From Escherichia coli (lineage in GTDB: Bacteria > Pseudomonadota > Gammaproteobacteria > Enterobacterales > Enterobacteriaceae), in NCBI RefSeq assembly GCF_003334315.1, contig NZ_QOWR01000059.1: DNA of 28,938 nt; one strand, written 5' to 3'. Every line of letters begins with the position of its first letter. Position 1 is the first letter of the stretch. The position numbers were made by a program, and so were the translations under genes. This document shows, one piece after another, positions 6,960 through 21,900 of the stretch. The notes under the pieces were generated by a model, which saw only the letters and a list, made by a program, of their open reading frames with translations, was not told the origin of the DNA and made no database searches.

Positions 6960-6975
6960 CTGGTGCTCTATTCTT

Positions 6976-7133
<158 letters not shown>

Positions 7134-7153
7134 CAAATGTCTAATGCCTACGA

Positions 7154-8047
7154 CTACAGCGAAATACAGGTCCCCGCTTCGCCCGCCAGCGTCTCTTCAA
7201 TTCGCGATAACGCCCCAATCCACGCGGGTTTACCACCGCTTCTGACATAACCACTCACCGCCGTTACCTTCGGCCCCATCGAACCATCGGCTTTGGCAAA
7301 TGGCGCTAACTCATCCGGTGTGGCATGGCGAATGGCGCGTTGCTGCGGCGTTCCCCAGTTTTCATATACCGCATCAGCATCAGTGAGGATCACCAGCCCA
7401 TCGGCGTTAATCTGCTCAGCGAGCAACGCAGCAGCGAGATCTTTATCAATCACCGCTTCACTCCCTGCCCCATCTTCCGTCACAGGCACACCGCCGCCGC
7501 CACTGCAAATCACCACATGCCCCTCTTTGAGCAACAACTCGATGGCTTCGCTGTCGAGAATTTTACGCGGTTGCGGAGACGCCACCACCCGGCGCAAATA
7601 TTTACCATCACGTTTCATCTGCCAGCCGTAAGCCGCTTCCAGTGCCTCTTGTTCTTCTGGCTGATAAACCGGACCAATAAATTTCTCTGGCTGCAAAAAC
7701 GCCGGATCATCAGGCGAAACCTCAATGCGCGTCAGCACCGTCGTCACGGGCGGCATCTGCGGCTGTGCGCTCAAACTCTGCGCCAGCATATAGCCAATCA
7801 TCCCCTGACTTTCTGCCACCAGCACATCCAGCGGATACGGTTCTACCTCTTTCCACGCCAGATTCTGCAATGCCAGCAGCCCCACCTGCGGCCCGTTGCC
7901 GTGAACAATCGCCAGCCGATAAGAACGGGCCAGGCGCGCCAGCGCGGGTACAGCACTGGCGATATTGCGATATTGATTTTCTGCCGTCAGCGCCTCACCG
8001 CGCTGGAGTAAGGCGTTTCCCCCAAGAGCTACAACCAGTGTTTTCAT
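7154..8047 (-). CDS. ybcF: Carbamate kinase (ArcC-like; reported as AllK)
   Basis: 297-aa [43 protein letters not shown]... amino-acid kinase family; start overlaps ylbF stop (ATGA). Confidence 0.9.
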
Positions 8048-8859
8048 GGTTTTCCTTGTAATAATTGTTGACCAAGCCAGAACCCCAGCAGTGTATCTGC
8101 CCCTGACGTATGCCCCAGCGCCAGCAGCGAATCAATCGCAACAGCGGTACGTTTCGGGCAACTCAGAGCATGAACAAAGTGCAGGAGTGGCGAGGCGAAA
8201 TATCCTTGCGCGGCATAACGTAAATAACTGACGCTCACCGCTGTGGTAACGAGTTGCAGATTGTCGGAACAGGCAAAAAACTGGCGACCGGAGCGCGCAT
8301 CTAAAGCGCCATAATACCAGGCCGCCAGCAGCATTCCGCTCAGCGTGTCATCATGACTCGGCGTTAATCCGGGGCCTTTACCCAGCCAGTGCCGCCAGTC
8401 GGTCTTAACGCCATTGAGCGCGGCCTGAAAACAGTGACGAAACTGGCGTAACTCAGCAGGCAGCGGATCGCTTGCCGCCAACGCCAGTGGCCCGAAAAGC
8501 CCGGTTTCCTCCGCGCATTGCATCCATGCAGCTGCAAGTGGTTGAGGATGCGCAGGCGGCGTAATACGCAGCAAACAATAACGCTGTGGCTGTTTAACCG
8601 TGAAACGCCCGAGGCGAATCCCTTGAGCCACAACCTGTGGTCGTTCATTGCCGCATAATCCACCGCATAACGCATCGAATTGCGCACGGCGAAGCATCCA
8701 TCCTCCGGGGCCGAAACCACTACCCTGACGATGCAGCGTTAACAGTTCGCCGCTTTCCGTCATCAGGTTAATCGCCCGTCGCCACACTCCCGCTAACCGC
8801 CAGGACTGGCGATAATTCGGTGCACTACGGCTGGCAAGCAGAGGATGGATGATCGTCAT
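8044..8859 (-). CDS. ylbF: YlbF (DUF2877 family; reported subunit of oxamate carbamoyltransferase)
   Basis: Start placed at ATG 8857..8859 ([21 protein letters not shown]...) with GAGGA RBS upstream, giving 271 aa; the longer ORF-track start at 8952 lies inside ylbE. Confidence 0.8.
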
Positions 8860-8869
8860 TGCGCGTTCC

Positions 8870-10129
8870 TCAACCAATCCCCATGCTTTCAGCCAGTGCT
8901 TCCAGCGCCTGTTCAAAACACGCCAGCGGTGCCCGCACAGTGCCTGCGCCAATCTGCCCGATCCCCGCCTCTTTATGGGCGATACCGGTATTGATGAGTG
9001 GCGTAATGCCGGTTTCTACCACGCGACGAATGTCCAGTCCCAGGCACGCGCCCTGAAAATCCCAGCCTGGGATCTGCAACTGCATATTGCGCTCAAGGTA
9101 AATTTCCGCCATCTCTTCAGATACCGCTCTGGCCGCTTCCATGCCACCCGCACCGACAAAGCGCGTTACGCCAGGCGCTGCGATCATTGCCGCACCTCCG
9201 ATACCAAAGGTTTCGGTAATCGCGCTATCGCCCATATCCGGGTTCGCCTGCTCCTGCGAGAAGCCGGTGAAAAACAGACCTTGCGGAGTGTTTACAGGCG
9301 CAGTAAACCAGCGTTCGCCCAGCCCGCTTACCCGAATCCCGAACATATTGCCGTTGCGGGTCATTGCCGTGACGATGCTGCCTGCGCGGATCATCGCGCC
9401 AGCATCCATCGCCGCCTTGCAGTAAGCCATCGCGAGGTTGAGGAAGAACTGATCGGTCACGCTGAGGAAATCCATCACTTCGGCGATGTGCTGTTTATCA
9501 TGATCGAGGCGAGCAATTTGTGGGACCAGCGCACGCATTAACAGTGCAGAGGAAGCAATATTGCGTTGATGGAACTCATCGCCCATCGTAATGCCCTGCG
9601 CCATCATCGCCGTGAGATCGATACCGCGCTCCATGCGCCCCAGCGCCGCGCTTAATACTGGCATTAACACATCGCGCATCCAGCGATGGCGAGTCAGGAC
9701 ATCTTCGCCGTAAGCGCCAAAACGCATCACTTTGCCGATACCTTCGTTGAGGTTGCAGTACGCCCGGTTGCCGTCGGTCACGTTCTCAACCACCAGCATC
9801 GGCATACTGGCAGAAGTAATACCGCCCATTGGACCGACGGCATTCACATGGTGACAAGGAATGAAGTTCACTTCCCCCTGCTCCAGTATTGCCAGCGCCT
9901 GCGCTTCATCTTTCGCCCAGCCTTCGAACAGACATGCGCCCACGCACGCCCCTTTCATGGGTCCGGTCATCTCCTGCCAGCGCATTGGCGGCCCGGCGTG
10001 AAGCAGTGTTTTGCCCTCGTTTAGTTCGCTGATAAGTGAAGAAGCCGGTTGCACATCCAGCCAGTGTGGACGAGCGCGACGAATTTGTTCGATAACCGCA
10101 GCATTGGCTTGCGCCACTGATGTAAACAT
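8870..10129 (-). CDS. ylbE: YlbE (DUF1116 family; reported subunit of oxamate carbamoyltransferase), intact
   Basis: Uninterrupted 419-aa [29 protein letters not shown]...; AAGGGG RBS immediately upstream, overlapping the fdrA stop. Confidence 0.85.
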
Positions 10130-10138
10130 GGGAACCCC

Positions 10139-11806
10139 TTATTGCAAACGTTCTAATAAACGAGCCAGTTTTTTATTGCCGCCGGCGACTGGCGACCATT
10201 GGTAATGCACAACCGGTTTGCTGGCGCTTTGTAGCTCCAGCGCAAAGCTGCGTAATCCGATGTTAATCACGGCGACGTTTTCCAGTAATGACGGTGTGTG
10301 TTGCTGAGTGGCAGGCGAAAGCGGACGAATCAGTGCCGCCGCCAGCAAGGTGGCTTCCGGCAGCGAACTCACTACCGCGATCCCTGCATCTTCCAGCGTG
10401 GCGATTTGCTGCGAGCGGCATTGCGGGTCACGTTCAGTGCCTGTCACCGTGGCAATGGCATACAGTGGTTGATTGTCTGAACGCGCAGCACAGGCTTTTT
10501 GCCAGGCGCTTACCAGCGAGGCGGCAGGATCGGCGGTCGCACCGAAGCCAATCACGACATCAAGCAGCAGCACACGCACTTGCGGTTTAGCGCCGAGATC
10601 GGTAATTAACTGGTTGCGTAAGGTTGGGTCGATCATCGGATGGGGACGCCCGACGGTGTAGAAATCATCGCCGAGGTCAATAATCTGGTGGCCATCGGCG
10701 TCCAGCATCATGCCATGTTGATGGGTATCGTCGGCTTCCACGCCAAGGTGCCCGGCAAGTAATCCCGCCGCTTCGGCGGCCAGCGTACCGCCGGTATACA
10801 AACCGCAAATAAATCCGCTGCTGACAGGTGCTATTGCGTTACGTCGCGCCGTGACGCGTGAAAGCAGGCAAGCCAGGCGTGCGGCCTCATCCAGCGAGGA
10901 GGCAAACCAGACATTCTCGTCGCGGGCCACCGCCGGGGTATAACCTAAAAACAGCGCCACCGTCGGTTTGCCGGTTGCTTTCATGGCATTAACAATTTTC
11001 AGACGCACAGCTTCGGCAGGCGGTTTTGAAACAAATGCCAGCACTTCGCTTTTCTCGTCTGCACTGAGCATTTCCAGCGCCGTCAGCGCACTGATGCCGC
11101 CCACTTCACGGCTGAGGTCGCGCCCGCCAAGGCCAATCGCGTGAGTAATTCCCTCCCCTGCCAGCGCAATCTGCGAACACAGTTCCTGAATCCCGGTACC
11201 GGAAGCGCCAATGACGCCAATATTGCCTTCCGGCATCACGTTAGCAAAAGCCAGCGGCGTGCCGGCAATCATCGACGTACCGCAGTCCGGCCCCATCACC
11301 AGCAAGCCTTTTTCCCGCGCGCGGCTTTTAAGTTGGATTTCATCTTCCAGCGTGACGTTATCGGAGAACATCATCACGTTGAGGTTGCGATCCAGCGCCT
11401 GGTTCGCCAGCTCCGCCGCATACTCGCCAGCCACTGAAATCAGCGCCAGACTGGCGTCGGGTAATTTCTGACAGGCACTGTCCCAGCGACGCACCTGCGT
11501 CAAGGCCTGGCTGCTGCCTGACCCCTGCGCCAGTTGTTTTAGCGCCTCTTCAAGCTGCTGCATAATCGCCTACGCGATCCCCGCATCCGCCGCTTCGCTA
11601 CGAATTGTCACGCAAATATCGTTCGACGTGGCGTTATTAAAATCGTCATGCCAGAAACCTGTGGTATCTAATAACGCTTTATTGGCGGGCGTACCCATCA
11701 TTACGGAAACATCATCAACATTTTCTGATTCGCTGAGTTTTCGTGAAATAATCATTAAACTGACCGAATCCTGAAAACACCCTTTTTTAATAAAGGCGTG
11801 GATCAT
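10139..11806 (-). pseudogene. fdrA: fdrA (succinyl-CoA-synthetase-like protein; reported AllF) interrupted by an in-frame TAG at codon 79
   Basis: ORFs 11570..11806 (78 aa, ...AADAGIA) and 10139..11563 (474 aa, MQQLEE...) are in the same frame. Minus strand reads GCG-TAG-GCG-ATT-ATG, so 78 + stop + 2 + 474 = 555 codons, the length I recall for K-12 FdrA. Confidence 0.75.
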
Positions 11807-12043
11807 AACAACTCCTTAAAAATTGCACCCATGGCAATTGCACGAGCAGTGTTAATGTGGCGATTACGGTATCGATGACAACGGGTAAATAAGGTGATGA
11901 ATATTACACAGGGATTATTAACAAAAGAATTCAAATAACCGCCATGCTATTACGTGTTATTTTTTAATAAGCGTGGTTGTTTTAAAAACCAGGTTAAAAG
12001 AGAGCGGATTATCAAATAAATTCTAACTATATTTTTTTGCCTG

Positions 12044-12063
12044 TCTGGATCACATAATCCAGA
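12044..12063. promoter_or_regulatory. Palindrome TCTGGAT-N6-ATCCAGA in the fdrA/allD divergent promoter region (candidate regulator site)
   Basis: Perfect 7-bp inverted repeat about 60 nt upstream of allD ATG in a 316-bp AT-rich intergenic region. Confidence 0.3.
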
Positions 12064-12122
12064 TATTTTCCCTGTATGTTAATTGCAGTCATGCTTCACA
12101 CCGTCGTTAAAAAGGAAGACAG

Positions 12123-13172
12123 ATGAAAATCAGTCGGGAAACACTCCACCAGCTAATCGAGAATAAACTCTGCCAGGCTGGGTTAAAACGTGAGCACGCT
12201 GCAACCGTGGCTGAAGTATTGGTTTACGCCGATGCCAGAGGGATCCACTCTCATGGCGCGGTGCGCGTTGAATACTACGCAGAACGCATTTCAAAAGGCG
12301 GCACCAACCGCGAACCGGAGTTTCGTCTTGAAGAAACCGGGCCGTGCTCGGCAATTTTACATGCCGACAATGCCGCCGGACAGGTCGCGGCGAAAATGGG
12401 TATGGAACATGCCATCAAAACCGCCCAGCAAAAAGGCGTTGCGGTGGTCGGTATCAGCCGGATGGGTCACAGCGGCGCAATCTCTTATTTTGTGCAGCAG
12501 GCAGCCCGCGCTGGATTAATTGGCATTTCGATGTGCCAGTCCGATCCAATGGTGGTGCCGTTTGGCGGCGCGGAAATTTACTACGGTACTAACCCATTGG
12601 CCTTTGCCGCGCCGGGAGAAGGCGATGAGGTCCTTACCTTTGATATGGCGACTACCGTACAGGCATGGGGAAAAGTGCTCGACGCCCGCTCGCGTAATAT
12701 GTCTATTCCGGATACCTGGGCGGTCGATAAAAACGGTGCACCAACAACCGATCCGTTCGCGGTACATGCTCTGCTCCCCGCCGCCGGGCCGAAAGGGTAT
12801 GGCCTGATGATGATGATTGACGTCCTCTCAGGCGTCTTACTCGGCTTACCGTTCGGGCGACAGGTTAGTTCGATGTATGACGATTTACACGCCGGGCGTA
12901 ATTTGGGGCAATTACATGTAGTTATTAACCCGAACTTTTTCTCCTCCAGCGAATTATTCCGTCAACATCTTAGCCAGACCATGCGCGAATTAAATGCCAT
13001 TACCCCCGCGCCCGGTTTTAATCAGGTTTATTATCCCGGACAGGATCAGGATATTAAACAACGCAAAGCCGCCGTCGAAGGCATCGAAATTGTTGATGAT
13101 ATTTACCAGCATTTAATTTCCGACGCGCTTTATAACACGTCATACGAAACGAAAAATCCCTTTGCGCAATAA
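12123..13172 (+). CDS. allD: Ureidoglycolate dehydrogenase
   Basis: 349-aa ORF MKISRETLHQLIENKLCQAGLKREHAATVAEVLVYADARGIHSHGAVRVEYY... (Ldh_2 / malate-L-lactate dehydrogenase family). Confidence 0.93.
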   Translation: MKISRETLHQLIENKLCQAGLKREHAATVAEVLVYADARGIHSHGAVRVEYYAERISKGGTNREPEFRLEETGPCSAILHADNAAGQVAAKMGMEHAIKTAQQKGVAVVGISRMGHSGAISYFVQQAARAGLIGISMCQSDPMVVPFGGAEIYYGTNPLAFAAPGEGDEVLTFDMATTVQAWGKVLDARSRNMSIPDTWAVDKNGAPTTDPFAVHALLPAAGPKGYGLMMMIDVLSGVLLGLPFGRQVSSMYDDLHAGRNLGQLHVVINPNFFSSSELFRQHLSQTMRELNAITPAPGFNQVYYPGQDQDIKQRKAAVEGIEIVDDIYQHLISDALYNTSYETKNPFAQ

Positions 13173-13193
13173 TTATTGAGACAGGACTTTCTT

Positions 13194-14429
13194 ATGATTA
13201 CACATTTTCGTCAAGCCATAGAAGAAACGCTGCCCTGGCTTTCCTCTTTTGGCGCTGACCCAGCGGGTGGGATGACCCGTTTACTTTATTCGCCGGAATG
13301 GCTGGAAACCCAGCAGCAATTTAAAAAAAGAATGGCAGCAAGCGGGCTGGAAACACGTTTCGATGAAGTGGGGAATTTATACGGTCGCCTGAGTGGCACC
13401 GAATATCCACAGGAAGTGGTTCTGAGCGGTTCGCATATCGATACCGTGGTTAACGGCGGTAACCTCGACGGGCAATTCGGCGCGCTGGCGGCGTGGCTGG
13501 CAATTGACTGGTTGAAAACGCAATACGGCGCGCCGTTACGTACGCTTGAAGTGGTGGCGATGGCGGAAGAAGAAGGCAGCCGCTTCCCGTATGTCTTCTG
13601 GGGCAGTAAAAATATCTTTGGGCTGGCGAATCCTGACGACGTGCGGAATATCTGTGATGCCAAAGGAAATAGTTTTGTCGATGCGATGAAGGCTTGCGGA
13701 TTTACTCTGCCGAACGCCCCACTAACTCCGCGTCAGGATATTAAAGCCTTTGTCGAACTGCATATCGAACAGGGCTGTGTGCTGGAAAGTAATGGGCAAT
13801 CAATTGGCGTGGTGAATGCAATTGTCGGGCAACGTCGCTATACGGTGACGCTGAACGGCGAATCAAACCATGCAGGCACCACGCCGATGGGTTATCGTCG
13901 TGATACGGTTTACGCTTTCAGTCGCATTTGCCATCAGTCGATCGAAAAAGCGAAAAAGATGGGCGACCCGCTGGTGCTGACCTTTGGCAAAGTAGAGCCG
14001 CGCCCGAATACGGTGAATGTGGTGCCGGGTAAAACCACGTTCACCATTGATTGTCGTCATACCGACGCCGCCATCCTGCGTGATTTCACCCAACAGTTAG
14101 AAAACGACATGCGGGCGATTTGCGATGAAATGGACATTGGTATTGATATCGATTTATGGATGGACGAAGAACCCGTGCCGATGAATAAGGACCTGGTCGC
14201 CACCCTGACAGAATTGTGTGAAAGTGAAAAACTGAATTACCGGGTGATGCACAGTGGTGCCGGGCATGACGCGCAAATTTTCGCGCCTCGCGTACCAACC
14301 TGCATGATTTTCATTCCCAGCATCAACGGGATCAGCCATAACCCGGCGGAACGCACCAATATTACCGACCTTGCCGAAGGGGTCAAAACGTTGGCAATCA
14401 TGCTTTATCAACTTGCCTGGCAGAAATAA
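13194..14429 (+). CDS. allC: Allantoate amidohydrolase (M20 peptidase family)
   Basis: ATG 13194 (MITHFRQAIEETLPWLSSFGADPAGG...) with GAGACAGGA RBS, 411 aa; the ORF-track start at 13176 is a TTG 18 nt upstream. Confidence 0.93.
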   Translation: MITHFRQAIEETLPWLSSFGADPAGGMTRLLYSPEWLETQQQFKKRMAASGLETRFDEVGNLYGRLSGTEYPQEVVLSGSHIDTVVNGGNLDGQFGALAAWLAIDWLKTQYGAPLRTLEVVAMAEEEGSRFPYVFWGSKNIFGLANPDDVRNICDAKGNSFVDAMKACGFTLPNAPLTPRQDIKAFVELHIEQGCVLESNGQSIGVVNAIVGQRRYTVTLNGESNHAGTTPMGYRRDTVYAFSRICHQSIEKAKKMGDPLVLTFGKVEPRPNTVNVVPGKTTFTIDCRHTDAAILRDFTQQLENDMRAICDEMDIGIDIDLWMDEEPVPMNKDLVATLTELCESEKLNYRVMHSGAGHDAQIFAPRVPTCMIFIPSINGISHNPAERTNITDLAEGVKTLAIMLYQLAWQK

Positions 14430-14439
14430 GGAGTCATAA

Positions 14440-15225
14440 ATGGGATATTTAAATAACGTCACCGGTTACCGCGATGATTTACTGGCTAACCGTGCGATTG
14501 TGAAACACGGTAATTTCGCACTGTTAACCCCGGATGGTCTGGTAAAAAATATTATTCCGGGCTTTGAAAATTGTGACGCGACAATCCTCTCCACGCCAAA
14601 GCTGGGTGCCTCTTTTGTTGATTATCTGGTCACACTGCATCAAAACGGCGGCAACCAACAGGGCTTCGGTGGCGAAGGCATTGAAACGTTCCTGTATGTG
14701 ATCTCTGGAAATATCACTGCCAAAGCCGAAGGCAAAACATTTGCCTTAAGCGAAGGTGGCTATCTTTATTGCCCGCCAGGCTCCTTAATGACGTTTGTTA
14801 ACGCCCAGGCCGAAGACAGCCAAATCTTTTTATATAAGCGCCGCTATGTTCCGGTAGAAGGCCATGCACCGTGGCTGGTTTCTGGCAATGCCAGCGAACT
14901 GGAACGCATTCACTATGAAGGTATGGATGATGTGATCCTGCTGGATTTTCTGCCCAAAGAGTTAGGTTTTGATATGAACATGCATATCCTCTCTTTTGCA
15001 CCAGGTGCCAGCCACGGTTATATCGAAACACACGTTCAGGAACACGGTGCCTATATTCTTTCCGGTCAGGGGGTTTATAACCTCGACAATAACTGGATCC
15101 CGGTGAAAAAAGGCGATTACATCTTTATGGGCGCTTATTCTTTACAGGCTGGTTATGGTGTAGGGCGTGGTGAAGCGTTCAGCTATATTTACTCGAAAGA
15201 TTGTAACCGCGACGTAGAGATTTAA
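14440..15225 (+). CDS. allE: (S)-ureidoglycine aminohydrolase (cupin)
   Basis: 261-aa ORF MGYLNNVTGYRDDLLANRAIVKHGNFALLTPDGL...; AGGAG RBS; follows allC by 10 nt. Confidence 0.9.
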   Translation: MGYLNNVTGYRDDLLANRAIVKHGNFALLTPDGLVKNIIPGFENCDATILSTPKLGASFVDYLVTLHQNGGNQQGFGGEGIETFLYVISGNITAKAEGKTFALSEGGYLYCPPGSLMTFVNAQAEDSQIFLYKRRYVPVEGHAPWLVSGNASELERIHYEGMDDVILLDFLPKELGFDMNMHILSFAPGASHGYIETHVQEHGAYILSGQGVYNLDNNWIPVKKGDYIFMGAYSLQAGYGVGRGEAFSYIYSKDCNRDVEI

Positions 15226-15267
15226 GTCATACCACTCGCCTGATTATTTTTAGCTATGTTGGATTTT

Positions 15268-15294
15268 GCCACGGTTTATACCGTGGCTTTTTTT
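15268..15294 (+). terminator. Rho-independent terminator of allD-allC-allE operon
   Basis: GCCACGG-TTTATA-CCGTGGC followed by TTTTTTT. Confidence 0.75.
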
Positions 15295-15302
15295 GTAACA
15301 TT

Positions 15303-15406
15303 GCCTGATGCGCTTCGCTTATCAGGCCTACATGATCTCTGCAATATATAGAATTTGCGCGATTTTCAGGAAGGATATGGTACTCATGCCGCATCCGGCA
15401 TGAGTA
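15303..15406. repeat. REP-like palindromic elements between convergent allE and glxK
   Basis: GCCTGATGCGCTTCGCTTATCAGGCCTACA (REP-type) at 15303..15332 and palindrome TACTCATGCC-GCATCC-GGCATGAGTA at 15381..15406. Confidence 0.6.
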
Positions 15407-15452
15407 CTGCACTCTTATGCGATATAAATCGCATCCGCTTTAAAGGTAAGGG

Positions 15453-16598
15453 TTAGTTTTTAATTCCCTGACCTATTTTAATGGCGCAGGCAATATTTCG
15501 CGCGCTGTTGAAGAGATTGGTTTCACCGCTGGCGAGCACTTCGGCTAAAGGTGCCAGACGAGGCAAAATGCTGAATACCGCGTCAATGCCGTACTGGTGC
15601 ACCACTTCCACGCCATCACCCAATACGCCAGCAATCCCAATCACCGGTACATTAAACTGCTTCGCCACCGACGCCACACCCAGCGGCGCTTTACCGCCTG
15701 CCGTTTGCGAGTCGATGCGCCCTTCCCCGGTAATCACCAGTGCTGCGCCCTGCACTGCCTGCGCAAGATTGACCGCATTCAACACAATTTCAATGCCCGG
15801 TTTAATATCCGCATTGAGAAATACCGCCGCCGCAATACCCATACCGCCCGCAGCGCCGCCGCCCGCCATCTGGCAGACATTAATTTCAGTTTGCTGTTGT
15901 AAAACACGGGCGTAATTTTGCAGCCCCTGTTCAAGTTCTTCGACCATCTCCGGCGTTGCCCCTTTTTGCGGGCCAAACACCGCCGCCGCGCCGCGTGCCC
16001 CTACCAGCGGGTTATCAACGTCACATGCTACTTCAATATGGCAATTCGCCAGACGCGGATCGCATTCATCCATCTCAATGCTTGCCACGCGCGCTAAATT
16101 ACCACCGTTTGCCGCCAGCGCCTGACCGTCGGCATCAAGGAAACGCACACCGAGCGCCTGCGCCATGCCCATACCGCCGTCGACCGTCGCACTGCCGCCA
16201 ATGCCGAGAATAATATGGCGAATGTCGTTATCCAGCGCATGACGAATTAACTCCCCCGTACCAAAACTGGAGGCCAGCAACGGATTACGCTTTTCAGGCG
16301 CGACCAGCATCAGGCCACTTGCTGCCGCCATCTCAATCACCGCCGTTTTCCCGTCGCCGGTAAGGCCATAAAAAGCATTCACTTTTTCGCCCATCGGCCC
16401 GCAGACTTCAAGCGTCACGATGTTGCCGCCCGTCGCGGCGACCATCGCATCCACCGTCCCTTCGCCGCCATCCGCTATCGGCAAACAGATATAGTTCGCA
16501 TCGGGAAAGAGGGTCGAAAACCCGGCTTTAATTGCCTGACAACATTTTTCTGCACTTAAGCTCTCTTTAAAAGAGTCTGGCGCAATGACAATCTTCAT
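15453..16598 (-). CDS. glxK: Glycerate kinase II
   Basis: [48 protein letters not shown]..., 381 aa from ATG at 16598. Confidence 0.93.
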
Positions 16599-16619
16599 TA
16601 TCAATCCTTTTTCAACAAA

Positions 16620-17927
16620 TTATTCGATGCGTTCCCACGGAATAAGGTTATCCATAAGAACAGCCAGTAAAATCCCGACCAATAAGCCGTTACTGAGCAG
16701 AGGACGAAGCGTTAATGGAAGGTCTTGCAGATACACAGGCGGTAATGCCATTAAAAATATGCCGACAAATAACGGCAATGCGAGTCGATAAATATTGCGA
16801 GCGGTAAACGTTATTTGCTGGCTAAACACCAGCGCGGAAAAGAGTAAAGGCAGATAAGAAACCAGCATGACCGCACTACTCACGGGTAAAGGGATACTGC
16901 AAAACAGTCGCGTGAGTGCAGGAACCAGCGCCACCAGCAGGCAAATAACGCTGCCATAAATAAACGAACGCCGCGTGTAATCGCCAGTCTGGGTTAATAA
17001 ACCAATGGATGAAACAAACGGTGAAAATGGAATTACCGCCAGCGGTACGGTTATCAGCGTCATAAATCCGGTCGCCACAAAGCTACGACGATAACGCGTA
17101 TTCCCTGCGCCCTGCTGCGGATAAAAAACATCCGTGCCCCGAATCGCACCGTAGGTATTGCTGATATTTACCAGACCTGTAATCACCGCCGTCAGAATAA
17201 TTCCCGGCGACAAAGCACCGCCACTGCCGAGCGGGAACCACTGCCAGTGCAACTCACCGGAGAGCGAATGCGAAGAAGGAAAGCAAAAGTACCACAACAA
17301 CCAGCCGGTTATCGTACCGACCAGCAGGCCATAACGGGCAAAACGTTGCGGCAGAAAGATAATCATCGCCAGTACCAGGCACATCACCGCCACCGAGAGC
17401 GCGAACGGTGGTAACTGAATTTTAAAATTTGGGTCGGCTATGCCAAACGGCAGCCCGAGCATACCTTTGAAAAAGATAGTGGTCAGCTGCGCGCCCAGCA
17501 TCAACATAAACAAGACCATCACCGACGGCGTAAATAACCGTGCCAGGCGATGGCCTAATCCGCTAAAACCAATCAACATCGTCAGCACGCCGGAGAGTGC
17601 AATCCCCACCGCCAGACTGGTAGCGATATCGTTGATCGGTGTCCCGCGCGATGCTTCGCCAAGGGTGATAGTAAGGATGGTTCCCCACCACAGGCCACCC
17701 GGCCCTTCCATAATAGCGCGACGATGACCGCAGAACGCCTGAGCGAAGCAGGCCAGTGCGGTAGCAAGAAAAGCATATTGCGTGAGCGTAAGCAGGCTAC
17801 TTTGCGGCAACTGAAAAGCAGAAAGTAGCGTAGGAGGAACCACAACCGTGTTGCAAAAAATAAAGAAAAACCACTGAAATCCTGATAACAGGCTTTCGCG
17901 GCTGACTGCAAAATTGAACATAAACAC
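16620..17927 (-). CDS. ybbY: Putative purine/xanthine permease (NCS2 family)
   Basis: 435-aa polytopic membrane ORF MFMFNFAVSRESLLSGFQWFFFIFCNTVVVPP...; alternative start 2 codons downstream at 17921. Confidence 0.85.
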   Translation of the reverse strand: MFMFNFAVSRESLLSGFQWFFFIFCNTVVVPPTLLSAFQLPQSSLLTLTQYAFLATALACFAQAFCGHRRAIMEGPGGLWWGTILTITLGEASRGTPINDIATSLAVGIALSGVLTMLIGFSGLGHRLARLFTPSVMVLFMLMLGAQLTTIFFKGMLGLPFGIADPNFKIQLPPFALSVAVMCLVLAMIIFLPQRFARYGLLVGTITGWLLWYFCFPSSHSLSGELHWQWFPLGSGGALSPGIILTAVITGLVNISNTYGAIRGTDVFYPQQGAGNTRYRRSFVATGFMTLITVPLAVIPFSPFVSSIGLLTQTGDYTRRSFIYGSVICLLVALVPALTRLFCSIPLPVSSAVMLVSYLPLLFSALVFSQQITFTARNIYRLALPLFVGIFLMALPPVYLQDLPLTLRPLLSNGLLVGILLAVLMDNLIPWERIE

Positions 17928-17977
17928 ACCTTAACCGGAGAATGCCCGCCGCAAGGACGGGCATTGCAGGGGCCAGA

Positions 17978-19339
17978 TTACTGCTGATGTTTAAGGATAA
18001 ATTGACCTTTCGGCGCAACAGGGAAGCCCTGTTCAATGTCGTAAATCACATCACCACGTAAGATGGTTTTCGTGATACGCGCGCCAATGGTACGGCCAAC
18101 ATACGGGCTGACTTTGTGGCGATATTCCAGATCGTCATTGGTAAGAACATAGCTGCTATTCGGCTGAATGAAGACGAAGTCGGCATCTTTTCCTGGGGCG
18201 ATACGGCCTTTTTGCTGCAGACCGAAAATATCTGCTGCGTTAGTCGCCATTAATTTGCCGAACATTGGCAGAGACATACCGCGTTTCTGTACCGCTTCAT
18301 CGAACATCACGTCCATGCAGCTTTGCAGACCGGCGATACCGCCCCATGCTTTCATGATGTTACCGGCTTTCATTTCCGGCGGGCATGGAGAGTGGTCGGA
18401 AACCAGGCAGTCGATTTCACCGTTAAACAGTTTTTCCCACATGCCTTTCTGGTTTTCCAGATCGCGGATCGGCGGTGAACACTTCGCCAGAGTACCGATT
18501 TCTTCGAACTGATCGGTATCCAGTACAAAGTAATGCGGGCAGGATTCACAAGTAACGTCCTGACCTTCCTGACGTGCACGAGTCACTTCCTCAACACCTT
18601 CCGGGCTGCTGACGTGGCAAACGTGCAGACGGCAACCAGCAACTTTCGCCAGATACAGTACGCGGCGAATTGCTTCCACTTCGGTAAATACCGGACGCGA
18701 AGCCACATAGTCATGAGCGGTTACGCGACCTTCACGCTTCGCTTCTTCGCCCAGTTCGTCACAAATCAGCGCGTTTTCGCAGTGCACCAGCACCGGCTGA
18801 CCCAGTTCGCCCAGCTTCTGCGCACCTTTGAAGAACTGCCAGTCGTTTACATCACGGAAGTCGTTGTCGATACCGCGATCGCCACAGGTCGCAACGAAGC
18901 ATTTGAAGCCGACAACGCCCACTTCATCCAGCTCATGCAGACGGTCGATGTTGTAAGACACCAGGCCACCGAGTTGTGCCGCATCAATAGTCAGCTTGCC
19001 TTTAGCGGCATCGAACTTCAGTTCAATTGAAGCGCGGTCAACCGTTGCAGGCAGCTGGTTGAGCGGCATTTCGATCATGGTGGTGATACCACCTTTTGCC
19101 GCTGCGCGAGTACCGGTTTCATAACCTTCCCAGTGGCTACGACCCGGTTCAGAAATATGGGTGTGCGCATCAACCATGCCCGGCGAAACCACCAGACCAG
19201 ACGCATCCATAACTTCTTTTGCATCGCCCAGATCCTGACCGATAGCAGCAATTTTTCCGCCTTTAACGGCGATATCTACAACGCGAGCTTCGTTTTCTAA
19301 AATAACGGTGCCGTTTTTAATGATTAAATCAAAAGACAT
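17978..19339 (-). CDS. allB: Allantoinase (cyclic amidohydrolase)
   Basis: 453-aa [80 protein letters not shown]... with metal-binding HxH motif. Confidence 0.95.
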
Positions 19340-19398
19340 AACAAACTCCTTGTAAAATACAGATTGGTTTTTAACTCAATGTTCAATATCGGGATTAA

Positions 19399-20853
19399 TT
19401 AACCTATGGTTTTTTGCTCTCCTGTTTTTTCTGCTGTTGTACGTTTCTTTAATAAGGCGTAGGCCGCAAAGGCGACGATGACGCCGACAAACCATGAAAC
19501 ACGCGATAACGGTTCCATAAAGTGAATAAACTTACCGCCAAGAGATAAAATAACGGCCACCAGAGTTACTGAAAACGCAGTGAGGTTAAAACCGTTATCG
19601 TAATATTTATAATCGCCAGGTGCGGTATACAGTTCATCAAGATTAATTTGTCCGCGCATCACCACAAAATAATGCGCCATCATGACACCAATTACCGGAC
19701 CAAGCATTCCGCCGATAATATCGAGGAAAAGATAAATGCTGTCCTGATTTTCCATTAATTTTCACGGGCAGATCAGCAAGCTGATAATACTGGCAATCAG
19801 TACGCCGTTTTTATAGGTCAGTTTTGTCGGTGCAATGGCGGCAATCTGATAACCGGCTGGAATAATATTACCGGTCGCGTTAGTGGAGATAGTTGTCATC
19901 AGAATAACCAGTACCGCAAAGAACGAGGCGAACAGGCTGTCCCAACGCTGAACAATATCCAGCACGTTCCAGGTATCAGCGCCGTAGTGAATACTGGCTC
20001 CGGCAATAATACATACCCCGGCGACCGCAAACAGAATATAGGCCACAACTAAACCCAGCGTTTGCCCCAGCGCCTGCTCACGAAACGAGTGGGCGTTTTG
20101 CGTAAAGTCGGATGCGCTCACCGCCGGTGCCGCCCAGACCGCAACTACCGCGTTAATCACCACCAGGAACAGGAAGCCACCGTTTTCTGCTTTCTGAATA
20201 CCGCTCGGAATGTAGTCAAAGATTGGACCGATCCCGATCAGTGAAATCGCCCAAATCGCCATACCGCCGAAAACGATATAGATGCACGGGTTAAGAATGG
20301 CAGTGAATTTATTTAAAACTTTGCCACCGCCAAAACCTATACCAACGTTGACCAGCCAGAAGATTAAGAAAGTAATTAAGCCCGGTAGAGAAAGGCCTAA
20401 CAGAGTGAAATCACCACCGAGAGTTAAAAATCCCGGCCAGATTTTGCCAATCAGAATCAAGCAGGCCAGTGACCCCGCGTAACATTGCAAACCAAACCAC
20501 ATGATGGCGGCAATTCCGCCCCTTAATAATCCGGGAAACAGTGCACCACGTACACCGTAAGAAGCACGCAGGATCATGGCAAAAGGCACACCGTATTTAC
20601 TGCCCGCAGCACCGTTTAATACCATTACCGCGGCAATGAAAAAGGCGCTGAGGATAATTGCCAGCATAATACTAAAGGTAGACAAGCCGAGAATAAAAAA
20701 GCCGCCGACCATCACATAATTGGGAACGTTATGAACCGAACCCATCCATAAGGTAAAATAGTTAAATGTTTTCCAGGTCCGCTGGCTTTGCGTTTTCGGC
20801 AATAGATCTTCGCTATAGCCGCGTTGCTGGAATAGTTTTCTCTGATGTTCCAT
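19399..20853 (-). pseudogene. ybbW: Allantoin permease (NCS1 family) interrupted by an in-frame TGA at codon 364
   Basis: ORFs 19762..20853 (363 aa ...LLICP) and 19399..19755 (118 aa MENQDS...) share a frame. Minus strand reads ...TGA-AAA-TTA-ATG-GAA, so 363 + stop + 2 + 118 = 484 codons, the length I recall for K-12 YbbW/AllP. Confidence 0.75.
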
Positions 20854-20990
20854 AAATCCCTCTTAATTTCACGTATCGAATAACGTTGTTTTAATCTAGC
20901 TATGAGGAACAAATAAAATAAAAATATTATTTTTAATACTGAAGCAACATCTTTGGCTGCTTTCTTTTTTAATATTGCTGGCCGATTCAT
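20712..20990 (-). CDS. ybbV: Hypothetical small protein YbbV (doubtful ORF overlapping ybbW 5' end)
   Basis: 92-aa ORF MNRPAILKKKAAKDVASVLKIIFLFYLFLIARLKQ... in the position of annotated K-12 ybbV; AT-rich, overlaps ybbW by about 140 nt. Confidence 0.3.
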   Translation of the reverse strand: MNRPAILKKKAAKDVASVLKIIFLFYLFLIARLKQRYSIREIKRDLWNIRENYSSNAAIAKIYCRKRKASGPGKHLTILPYGWVRFITFPIM

Positions 20991-21021
20991 TTTCTGATAT
21001 CGGCCATTTTTATTGCGGGTA

Positions 21022-21900
21022 TCAGGCCAGTTTATGGTTAGCCATTAATTCCAGCGCCTGCACTAACGCAGAGTGATCCAACTGGCTGCCACCGTTTGCC
21101 GCACAGGTATTAAATAACTCCTGGCAGGTCGCAGTGTTTGGCAGGTTCAGCGCAAGTGCTTTCGCACTTTGCAGTGCCAGGTTGAGATCTTTCTGGTGCA
21201 GAGCGATTTTGAAGCCCGGATTAAAGGTGCGTTTAATCATACGCTCGCCATGAACTTCCAGAATACGTGAGGAAGCAAAGCCGCCCATCAGCGCCTGGCG
21301 CACACGTACCGGGTCCGCACCAGCTTTTGAAGCAAATAGCAGGGCTTCAGAAACCGCTTCAATATTGAGCGCCACGATAATCTGATTTGCCACTTTGCAG
21401 GTTTGACCATCGCCGTTACCGCCCACGAGGGTGATATTTTTACCGAGCAGTTCAAACAGCGGTTTAACACGTTCAAATACCGCTTCATCACCGCCAACCA
21501 TAATCGACAACGTCCCTTCACGCGCACCGATTTCACCGCCGGAGACTGGCGCATCGAGATAATCGCCGCCCAGTTCATTCACCTGACGAGCGAAACGCTT
21601 AGTTTCAATCGGGGAAATGGAGCTCATATCAACAATGGTTTTGCCCTTCAGCGAGGCTTTGGTACAACCATTTTCACCGAACAGAACTTCTTCAACCTGA
21701 GGTGTGTCCGGCACCATAATAAAAATGATGTCCGATGCTTCCGTTACCTGGCGAGCAGTTTCAACACTGACGGCACCCAGTGACAGTAATTCATCAGCAA
21801 CCGGTCCAATGGTCGTGACATGTAATTGATGACCGGCACGCGCCAGATTAATGGCCATCGGTGTACCCATAATGCCTAAGCCAATAAATCCCAGTTTCAT
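21022..21900 (-). CDS. glxR: Tartronate semialdehyde reductase (2-hydroxy-3-oxopropionate reductase)
   Basis: 292-aa ORF MKLGFIGLGIMGTPMAINLARAGHQLHVTT... NAD-binding GxGxxG of the 3-hydroxyisobutyrate dehydrogenase family. Confidence 0.93.
   Translation of the reverse strand: MKLGFIGLGIMGTPMAINLARAGHQLHVTTIGPVADELLSLGAVSVETARQVTEASDIIFIMVPDTPQVEEVLFGENGCTKASLKGKTIVDMSSISPIETKRFARQVNELGGDYLDAPVSGGEIGAREGTLSIMVGGDEAVFERVKPLFELLGKNITLVGGNGDGQTCKVANQIIVALNIEAVSEALLFASKAGADPVRVRQALMGGFASSRILEVHGERMIKRTFNPGFKIALHQKDLNLALQSAKALALNLPNTATCQELFNTCAANGGSQLDHSALVQALELMANHKLA

Follow-up and report, generated by a model that had tools for sequence, protein, structure and literature searches.

The allFGHK operon of Escherichia coli encodes the terminal, ATP-yielding steps of anaerobic allantoin degradation and closes the last gap in the pathway of this species. 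From the 1960s on, oxamate carbamoyltransferase counted as an orphan enzyme, and the work assigning genes to it was published between 2021 and 2025. Kim and Kim (AEM 2024) reported that oxamate formation needs allF, allG, and allH each, that single and triple deletions of these genes abolish oxamate, and that the purified K-12 AllF-AllG-AllH proteins are an oxamic transcarbamylase (OXTCase), which forms oxalurate from oxamate and carbamoyl phosphate with KM values of 1.3 mM (carbamoyl phosphate) and 36.9 mM (oxamate) (PMC11326118). The fourth product, YbcF/AllK, is a catabolic carbamate kinase, and the four genes are co-transcribed in K-12 according to RT-PCR (Kim and Kim 2022; PMC9843812). 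AllS and ArcA activate the allF promoter and bind it in EMSA (2025; PMC12535856). In the wild type, one mRNA is made from a promoter that AllS and ArcA switch on when cells grow anaerobically on allantoin; AllF, AllG, and AllH convert oxalurate and phosphate to oxamate and carbamoyl phosphate; and AllK uses carbamoyl phosphate and ADP to give ATP, NH3, and CO2. Our literature search found no structure of an AllFGH complex.

Two other groups of enzymes share parts of this chemistry. Classical transcarbamylases (ATCase PyrB, OTCase ArgI/ArgF, and YgeW) catalyze the same type of reaction, moving a carbamoyl group between carbamoyl phosphate and the nitrogen of an amino or amide group, but AllFGH has no sequence relationship to them and is built from three different subunits where they have one or two. 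Domain searches with AllF, AllG, and AllH recovered no OTCase or ATCase domain. The arginine deiminase pathway, with the catabolic OTCase ArcB and the carbamate kinase ArcC, follows the same logic, in which a kinase of this type forms ATP from the carbamoyl phosphate that a phosphorolytic transcarbamylase delivers; the substrate here is oxalurate rather than citrulline, and the three AllFGH subunits are unrelated to the arginine enzyme.

The window examined here, meaning the whole 28,938-nucleotide stretch that was analyzed, is E. coli chromosome and carries fdrA-ylbE-ylbF-ybcF on the minus strand at positions 7154 to 11806. The region is the already characterized allFGHK operon, and finding it again adds nothing new. 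A reading made from the sequence alone had pointed to a report of fdrA, ylbE, and ylbF as the oxamate carbamoyltransferase, feeding carbamoyl phosphate to the carbamate kinase; the first part is indeed published (PMC11326118) and the literature agrees with the second (PMC9843812). The novelty implied there is not supported, as the function has been published and already appears in Pfam and RefSeq names. The features are as follows.

7154-8047, minus strand: allK (ybcF), 297 aa, catabolic carbamate kinase
8044-8859, minus strand: allH (ylbF), 271 aa, intact, start ATG at 8859
8870-10129, minus strand: allG (ylbE), 419 aa, intact, ATG at 10129
10139-11806, minus strand: allF (fdrA), ATG at 11806, frame broken by TAG at codon 79
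11573-11806, minus strand: allF 5' piece, codons 1-78, N-terminal domain PF27530 HMA_AllF_N
11570-11572, minus strand: allF premature amber TAG (Gln79, CAG to TAG), seen in the translation of 10139-11806
10139-11563, minus strand: allF 3' piece, 474-codon ORF from Met82, CoA_binding and Ligase_CoA core
11807-12122, minus strand: allD-allF divergent intergenic region with the allF promoter, its EMSA fragments placed by coordinate transfer

Gene order, lengths, spacing, and the divergent allD neighbor are the same as in K-12 (fdrA b0518, ylbE b4572, ylbF b0520, and ybcF b0521); the four genes differ from their K-12 counterparts at 37, 10, 11, and 20 nucleotides. According to the gene map, the operon sits in the allantoin cluster and is divergent from allDCE. 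At least 80% of the region was found in 5,408 of the 5,426 complete E. coli genomes, and many E. coli genomes with annotated fdrA-ylbE-ylbF-ybcF match it at 100.0% identity after rounding (2 mismatches in 4,653 nt). The coordinates agree with the earlier description of four minus-strand genes separated by 9- to 10-nt gaps or an ATGA overlap. Between the fdrA stop TAA (10141-10139) and the ylbE ATG lie 9 nt (ggggttccc), so that the ylbE Shine-Dalgarno sequence AAGGGG overlies the fdrA stop (TAAGGGG), as had been pointed out. The ylbE stop TGA (8872-8870) lies 10 nt before the ylbF ATG, and ATGA at 8047-8044 is common to the ylbF stop and the ybcF start. Such spacing would fit translational coupling, which may help to match the output of the three subunits with that of the kinase and with one another. 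A promoter and terminator scan of positions 6960 to 12130 gave sites no more numerous than in shuffled sequence and none at the expected places, an inverted-repeat search of both operon flanks gave no match, and an Rfam scan gave none inside the operon.

Domain searches placed all four products in the families that the sequence-only reading had named. Pfam now calls DUF1116 "AllG" (PF06545) and DUF2877 "AllH" (PF11392), and the window's AllG and AllH match these models with E values of 1.9e-97 and 2.1e-29, respectively; NCBIfam has no model for either, whereas Pfam has both. The ylbE ORF has the 419 intact codons attributed to it. AllK scores 619 bits against the NF006926 carbamate kinase equivalog (cut-off, 416) and 426 bits against the TIGR00746 arcC model, and it also matches Pfam AA_kinase. 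The operon has an intact AllG, an intact AllH, and a carbamate kinase as its last gene. AllF is represented by two pieces, the first matching positions 1-78 of NF004760 and the second positions 82-555 (869 bits). The Pfam domains of the 3' piece are CoA_binding (193-287) and Ligase_CoA (336-491), and the 78-aa product is annotated as PF27530.

The core of AllF shares the fold of the NDP-forming acyl-CoA synthetase/succinyl-CoA synthetase (SCS) superfamily, which includes the ACD alpha subunit, SucD, and ATP-citrate lyase. The superfamily fold joins alpha-subunit domains 1 and 2 to a beta-type Ligase_CoA domain; in AllF, Pfam finds CoA_binding and Ligase_CoA, and Foldseek matches ACD, SCS, and ACLY, with E values of 1e-13 to 1e-8 for ACD1, PH0766, 4-hydroxybutyryl-CoA synthetase, and SCS alpha; sequence matches to SucD reach an E value of 1e-11. 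Fold and sequence, together with the RefSeq name "acyl-CoA synthetase FdrA," which still persists, favor an older annotation of FdrA as an acyl-CoA synthetase or oxamate:CoA ligase acting after a separate carbamoyltransferase, of which it would not itself be a subunit. Identity to the superfamily is only 15 to 20%, and AllF differs from it in having an extra conserved N-terminal domain (PF27530) and in requiring AllG and AllH. No succinyl-CoA synthetase activity of FdrA was detected, and deletion of fdrA stops oxamate production but not oxamate removal (PMC8550087). Purified AllFGH has OXTCase activity, and the reaction involved is carbamoyl transfer to phosphate, with no CoA-ligase activity found (PMC11326118, PMC8550087). 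The older annotation is already contradicted by the published work, and we consider that there is almost no chance of its being correct.

The window differs from the characterized operon in allF itself. Codon 79 reads TAG instead of CAG (11572-11570, minus strand), an in-frame stop in a 555-codon gene, and the only ORF listed for fdrA is the 474-aa ORF at 10139-11563. Relative to K-12, AllF has this Q79amber change and nine substitutions. The sequence-only reading had noted that ylbE is intact but overlooked the stop in fdrA. Codon 79 is CAG (Gln) in six close complete genomes, and the exact 81-mer with TAG occurs in none of the 5,426 complete RefSeq E. coli genomes. A difference of one base from every complete genome is what an error of sequencing or assembly would produce, in which case the operon would be intact and ordinary. 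However, the independently assembled contigs L007 (SRR10357290, 14.5 kb) and L008 (ERR271230, 8.2 kb) are each 100% identical to the window, TAG included, and a 78-aa AllF product is on record from five contigs. An error is thus very improbable. The same TAG recurs in the assemblies of two runs that are independent of each other, so the amber allele is a real clonal mutation. The nine contigs with a 474-aa product were considered as a measure of the size of the amber clone and rejected, as TAG is present only in L007, L008, and possibly L013, which is too short. Contigs L009 to L012 and L014 have CAG at codon 79 and part from the window 5' of Met82, at five different points; these are probably insertion sequence junctions or contig ends.

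The most likely consequence is that, in this clone, the recent nonsense mutation Q79amber leaves the oxamate/ATP branch of the allFGHK operon lost or severely impaired. Full-length AllF, a protein of about 555 aa with HMA_AllF_N, CoA_binding, and Ligase_CoA (NF004760), is absent from the window, which has a nonsense allele in its place; in other E. coli lineages that encode exactly this AllG protein, FdrA is 555 aa long and has all three domains. Of the 150 best family representatives, 141 have alignments that begin at or before query residue 10, and only two short fragments are without the N-terminal domain. Across 59 sequences of 35 to 47% identity, residues D13, S14, L17, and N42 never vary, and all four lie in the piece spanning codons 1-78. 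Loss or severe impairment is likely because the missing domain, with its invariant residues, occurs in essentially every homologue and because allF deletion abolishes oxamate. The working ATP-yielding branch that had been assumed for this strain is not supported, given the allF amber codon and that a strain deleted for allF makes no oxamate. The 5' piece retains AAGGAG as a strong Shine-Dalgarno sequence, 5 nt ahead of the start codon at 11806. Ribosomes would release the 78-residue N-terminal domain at the amber codon and, at best, restart at Met82 to give a 474-residue core. Once the oxamate branch is lost, ureidoglycolate would be expected to go through AllA to glyoxylate.

Some observations weigh against loss or severe impairment. 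The 82-555 fragment of AllF is soluble and was crystallized as PDB 3DMY, a structure described as a homodimer (PMC11326118); the restart codon lies only 6 nt past the stop (TAG GCG ATT ATG), so that a two-piece AllF could keep some activity; and allG, allH, and allK are without decay, which would be expected if the mutation were very recent but also if the operon were in use. One alternative is a functional split AllF, in which reinitiation at Met82 supplies the second piece, the pieces assemble noncovalently or the core suffices, and OXTCase and the ATP branch work. Short-range termination-reinitiation is established in bacteria. A weak AGG stands 5 nt upstream of the Met82 codon. The 474-aa ORF begins at residue 1 of the crystallized 3DMY chain ("Protein fdrA") and runs to its C terminus, and the AllF model matches 3DMY with a TM score of 0.95 normalized to the target. 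In the confident model of AllF, the last strand of the N-terminal unit precedes the cut, which is predicted to fall within the opening turns of helix 75-94. The downstream genes being intact would also be in keeping with a working enzyme. In contrast, essentially every homologue has the N-terminal domain in fused form, with no naturally split or N-domain-less family among the 150 representatives, and a split would leave D13, S14, L17, and N42 on a separate 78-aa peptide. Reinitiation usually gives only a fraction of normal expression, and the same clone has lost the allantoin transporter, arguing against selection on the pathway. We therefore regard a functional split enzyme as unlikely and favor loss or severe impairment of the branch.

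Full-length AllF could also be made in useful amounts if a suppressor tRNA or leaky termination let ribosomes pass the amber codon. Amber suppressors exist in some E. coli strains. However, strong suppressors are rare in natural isolates, nothing in the window supports read-through, and the other nonsense mutation of the clone is a TGA, beyond rescue by an amber suppressor. Read-through is a highly unlikely explanation, and impairment of the oxamate branch remains the preferred one.

The second nonsense mutation is in the allantoin transporter gene allW (W364opal, TGA), and it is present in both the window and L007. Nonsense mutations in allW and allF together fit a lineage with decaying allantoin use. 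They also form an annotation caveat, as gene presence alone would score this strain as positive for the oxamate branch. The amber allele is a minor curiosity that could provide a ready-made test of the need for the AllF N-terminal domain. A further reading is that Q79amber is a natural split-AllF experiment, in which the restart gives the 3DMY fragment, or that the allF and allW nonsense mutations and five other private transitions, confined to the all cluster, mark a selected loss of allantoin catabolism; we find this improbable. If it were true and the clone made oxamate, the N-terminal domain would work in trans or be dispensable, giving a first handle on how the subunits of the unusual three-gene transcarbamylase are arranged.

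Seven changes are private to the clone, all of them transitions and six of the seven G:C to A:T, and they lie within positions 9525 to 21322, with none in the other 17 kb of the window. Chemical mutagenesis or a mutator burst was considered as their source and rejected: the clustering is marginal (p of about 0.02, our own estimate from the range of seven points), G:C to A:T is the usual bacterial bias, and the genotype is present in several independent public runs. Recombination was rejected as well. AllG carries A202V relative to the closest genomes; elsewhere in E. coli, V202 is common among the lineages, and those with the identical AllG(V202) protein differ from the window over 7.2 kb by 57 to 132 substitutions (four lineages) or by more than 1,000 mismatches (L018). 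Recombination does not explain the private SNPs because far more than seven changes would have come in with an imported tract. The AllK protein is identical to that of the closest genomes.

One of the private changes lies in the allF promoter. Transfer of coordinates from PMC12535856 relative to the allF ATG places the AllS EMSA fragment (-203/-144) at window positions 11950 to 12009 and the ArcA-P EMSA fragment (-142/-83) at 11889 to 11948. The promoter aligns with that of K-12 without gaps, with 10 substitutions located from -195 to -78, and the 77 nt immediately upstream of the start codon, ribosome-binding site included, are identical. The substitution at -99 (G to A, window position 11905) falls inside the ArcA fragment and is private to the clone in comparison with the six close genomes.

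The window is E. coli chromosome. Over 745-28835 its genes extend from folD to ylbG and take in the purine genes and the entire allantoin cluster, in the order folD-ybcJ-ybcI-cysS-ppiB-lpxH-purE-purK, ybcF-ylbF-ylbE-fdrA, allD-allC-allE-glxK-ybbY-allB-allW-glxR-hyi-gcl-allR-allA-allS and mnmH-ylbG. It begins within an IS1 copy (1-~360) that adjoins a fimbrial gene (fimA-like, sfmA) located upstream of folD; IS1 is also found at this place in the closest genomes, with a different junction or orientation. The fdrA-ylbE-ylbF-ybcF operon, now allF-allG-allH-allK, is made up as follows.

7154-8047, minus strand: ybcF (allK)
8044-8859, minus strand: ylbF (allH)
8870-10129, minus strand: ylbE (allG), 419 codons, intact
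10139-11806, minus strand: fdrA (allF), with an in-frame stop at codon 79

The sequence-only reading described this layout accurately, including the intact ylbE. The fdrA stop is followed after 9 nt by the ylbE ATG, with a Shine-Dalgarno sequence over the stop in TAAGGGG; 10 nt separate the ylbE stop from the ylbF ATG, and ylbF and ybcF overlap in ATGA. A REP-like palindromic sequence (e.g., gcctgatgcgacgcttgacgcgtcttatcaggc) lies in the ybcF-purK intergenic region (6960-7153), where a scan found no canonical intrinsic terminator 3' of ybcF. The stretch 7154-11806 matches annotated fdrA-ylbE-ylbF-ybcF in 5,424 of the 5,426 complete RefSeq E. coli genomes, at least 80% of it is covered in 5,408 of the 5,426, and only two bases in it separate the best-matching genomes from this strain.

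What that reading missed is the stop in fdrA. Translation of 10139-11806 gives an in-frame TAG at codon 79 (11572-11570), because of which an ORF listing contains only a 474-codon frame (10139-11563). The codon is CAG (Gln) in all six close complete genomes, and none of the 5,426 complete genomes contains the exact 81-mer spanning the TAG. We ruled out an artefact, as public assemblies list both the 78- and the 474-aa FdrA product and the same TAG appears in contigs from two runs (SRR10357290, 14.5 kb; ERR271230, 8.2 kb), both 100% identical to the window. The amber mutation is recent. Five other public contigs (L009-L012 and L014) encode an identical 474-aa C-terminal ORF but have CAG at codon 79, and are different alleles or contig ends; each departs from the window sequence at its own point within codons 1-81 (window-equivalent 11608-11678), 5' of Met82, which may reflect independent IS insertions in the fdrA 5' end or plain assembly breaks.

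The role proposed for these genes, oxamate carbamoyltransferase plus carbamate kinase, was right (PMC11326118, PMC9843812). In 2021, FdrA was tied to oxamate formation, as a delta-fdrA strain made no oxamate, and the fdrA promoter was found to be induced by allantoin under anaerobiosis (PMC8550087). YbcF was identified as a catabolic carbamate kinase in 2022, with all four genes on a common transcript (PMC9843812). In 2024, allF, allG, and allH were each shown to be required, with zero oxamate from delta-allF; purified AllF-AllG-AllH, an enzyme without similarity to classical transcarbamylases, converts oxamate and carbamoyl phosphate to oxalurate (KM of 36.9 mM and 1.3 mM, respectively) (PMC11326118). 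AllS and ArcA were reported as activators of the operon in 2025, AllS binding a -203/-144 fragment and ArcA-P a -142/-83 fragment (PMC12535856). Both the system and its mechanism had thus already been described.

Domain searches bore out the proposed families (a CoA-ligase-like protein, DUF1116, DUF2877, and carbamate kinase). In NCBIfam, the two parts of FdrA fall on positions 1-78 and 82-555 of the NF004760 profile ("acyl-CoA synthetase FdrA"), and with Q79 restored the protein contains Pfam CoA_binding (193-287) and Ligase_CoA (336-491). YlbE matches PF06545 (E = 1.9e-97), currently named "Oxamate carbamoyltransferase subunit AllG"; YlbF matches PF11392 (E = 2.1e-29), currently "AllH," and some RefSeq records already call it "oxamate carbamoyltransferase subunit AllH family protein." YbcF scores 619 bits against the carbamate kinase equivalog NF006926, above the curated cut-off of 416.

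Termination-reinitiation could in principle yield a functional two-piece AllF: the next ATG, Met82 (11563), lies 6 nt past the stop and is preceded, at 5 nt, by a weak AGG, and the 474-aa product covers PDB chain 3DMY ("Protein fdrA"), a homodimer per published analysis (PMC11326118), from residue 1 to the C terminus. We consider such an enzyme unlikely. An AlphaFold model of Q79-restored AllF (pLDDT 92.9) superposes on 3DMY with a TM score of 0.95 (normalised to target), the next-best structural matches being ADP-forming acetyl-CoA synthetases and succinyl-CoA synthetase alpha subunits. The model shows a beta-alpha-beta-alpha-beta unit at residues 2-69, and stop and restart both fall in the first turns of a long helix (75-94). 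Of the 150 top-ranking representatives of the family (35-50% identity), 141 have alignments that start at or before query residue 10, and the N-terminal domain is missing only from two short fragments; D13, S14, L17, and N42 do not vary across an alignment of 59 sequences. Pfam assigns the lost piece to a family of its own, HMA_AllF_N. This near-universal alignment, the invariant residues, the dedicated family, and the delta-allF phenotype suggest that the N-terminal piece matters. The function proposed for the operon is documented, but from the allF amber we infer, as our best reading, that the oxamate/ATP branch is probably lost or badly impaired in the clone sharing this genotype. The window's allG, allH, and allK are undamaged.

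Seven substitutions (9525, 11572, 11905, 13110, 19762, 20238, and 21322) occur in the window but in none of the six close genomes; all are transitions, six of them G:C->A:T. All lie inside the allantoin cluster, within 9525-21322, the remaining ~17 kb having no such change, and all but one of the six coding changes affect the protein sequence.

allG A202V
allF Q79* (11572)
promoter -99 (11905)
allD Y330H
allW W364* (19762)
allW V206I (20238)
glxR, synonymous

The second nonsense mutation converts W364 (TGG->TGA) of the allantoin transporter gene allW (ybbW, 19399-20853, minus strand). The SRR10357290 contig has the same AllW split (363 + 118 aa), and the exact 81-mer around this TGA is in no complete RefSeq E. 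coli genome. Other E. coli lineages, which are more divergent, encode an identical AllG(V202) protein together with a full 555-aa FdrA. The pattern of private substitutions fits a relaxation of selection on allantoin use but may also be due to chance, the clustering being only marginally significant (rough p ~0.02).

The G->A change at 11905 (-99 from the allF ATG) is inside the 60-bp -142/-83 fragment shifted by ArcA-P in a K-12 EMSA and turns TGTGTGATAT into TGTGTAATAT, whose resemblance to a -10 element is greater. Between allE and glxK, on the minus strand (15232-15298 and 15324-15366), are Rfam sRNA matches to STnc480 (87.6 bits) and ES036/CssrF (38.1 bits), both above gathering score.
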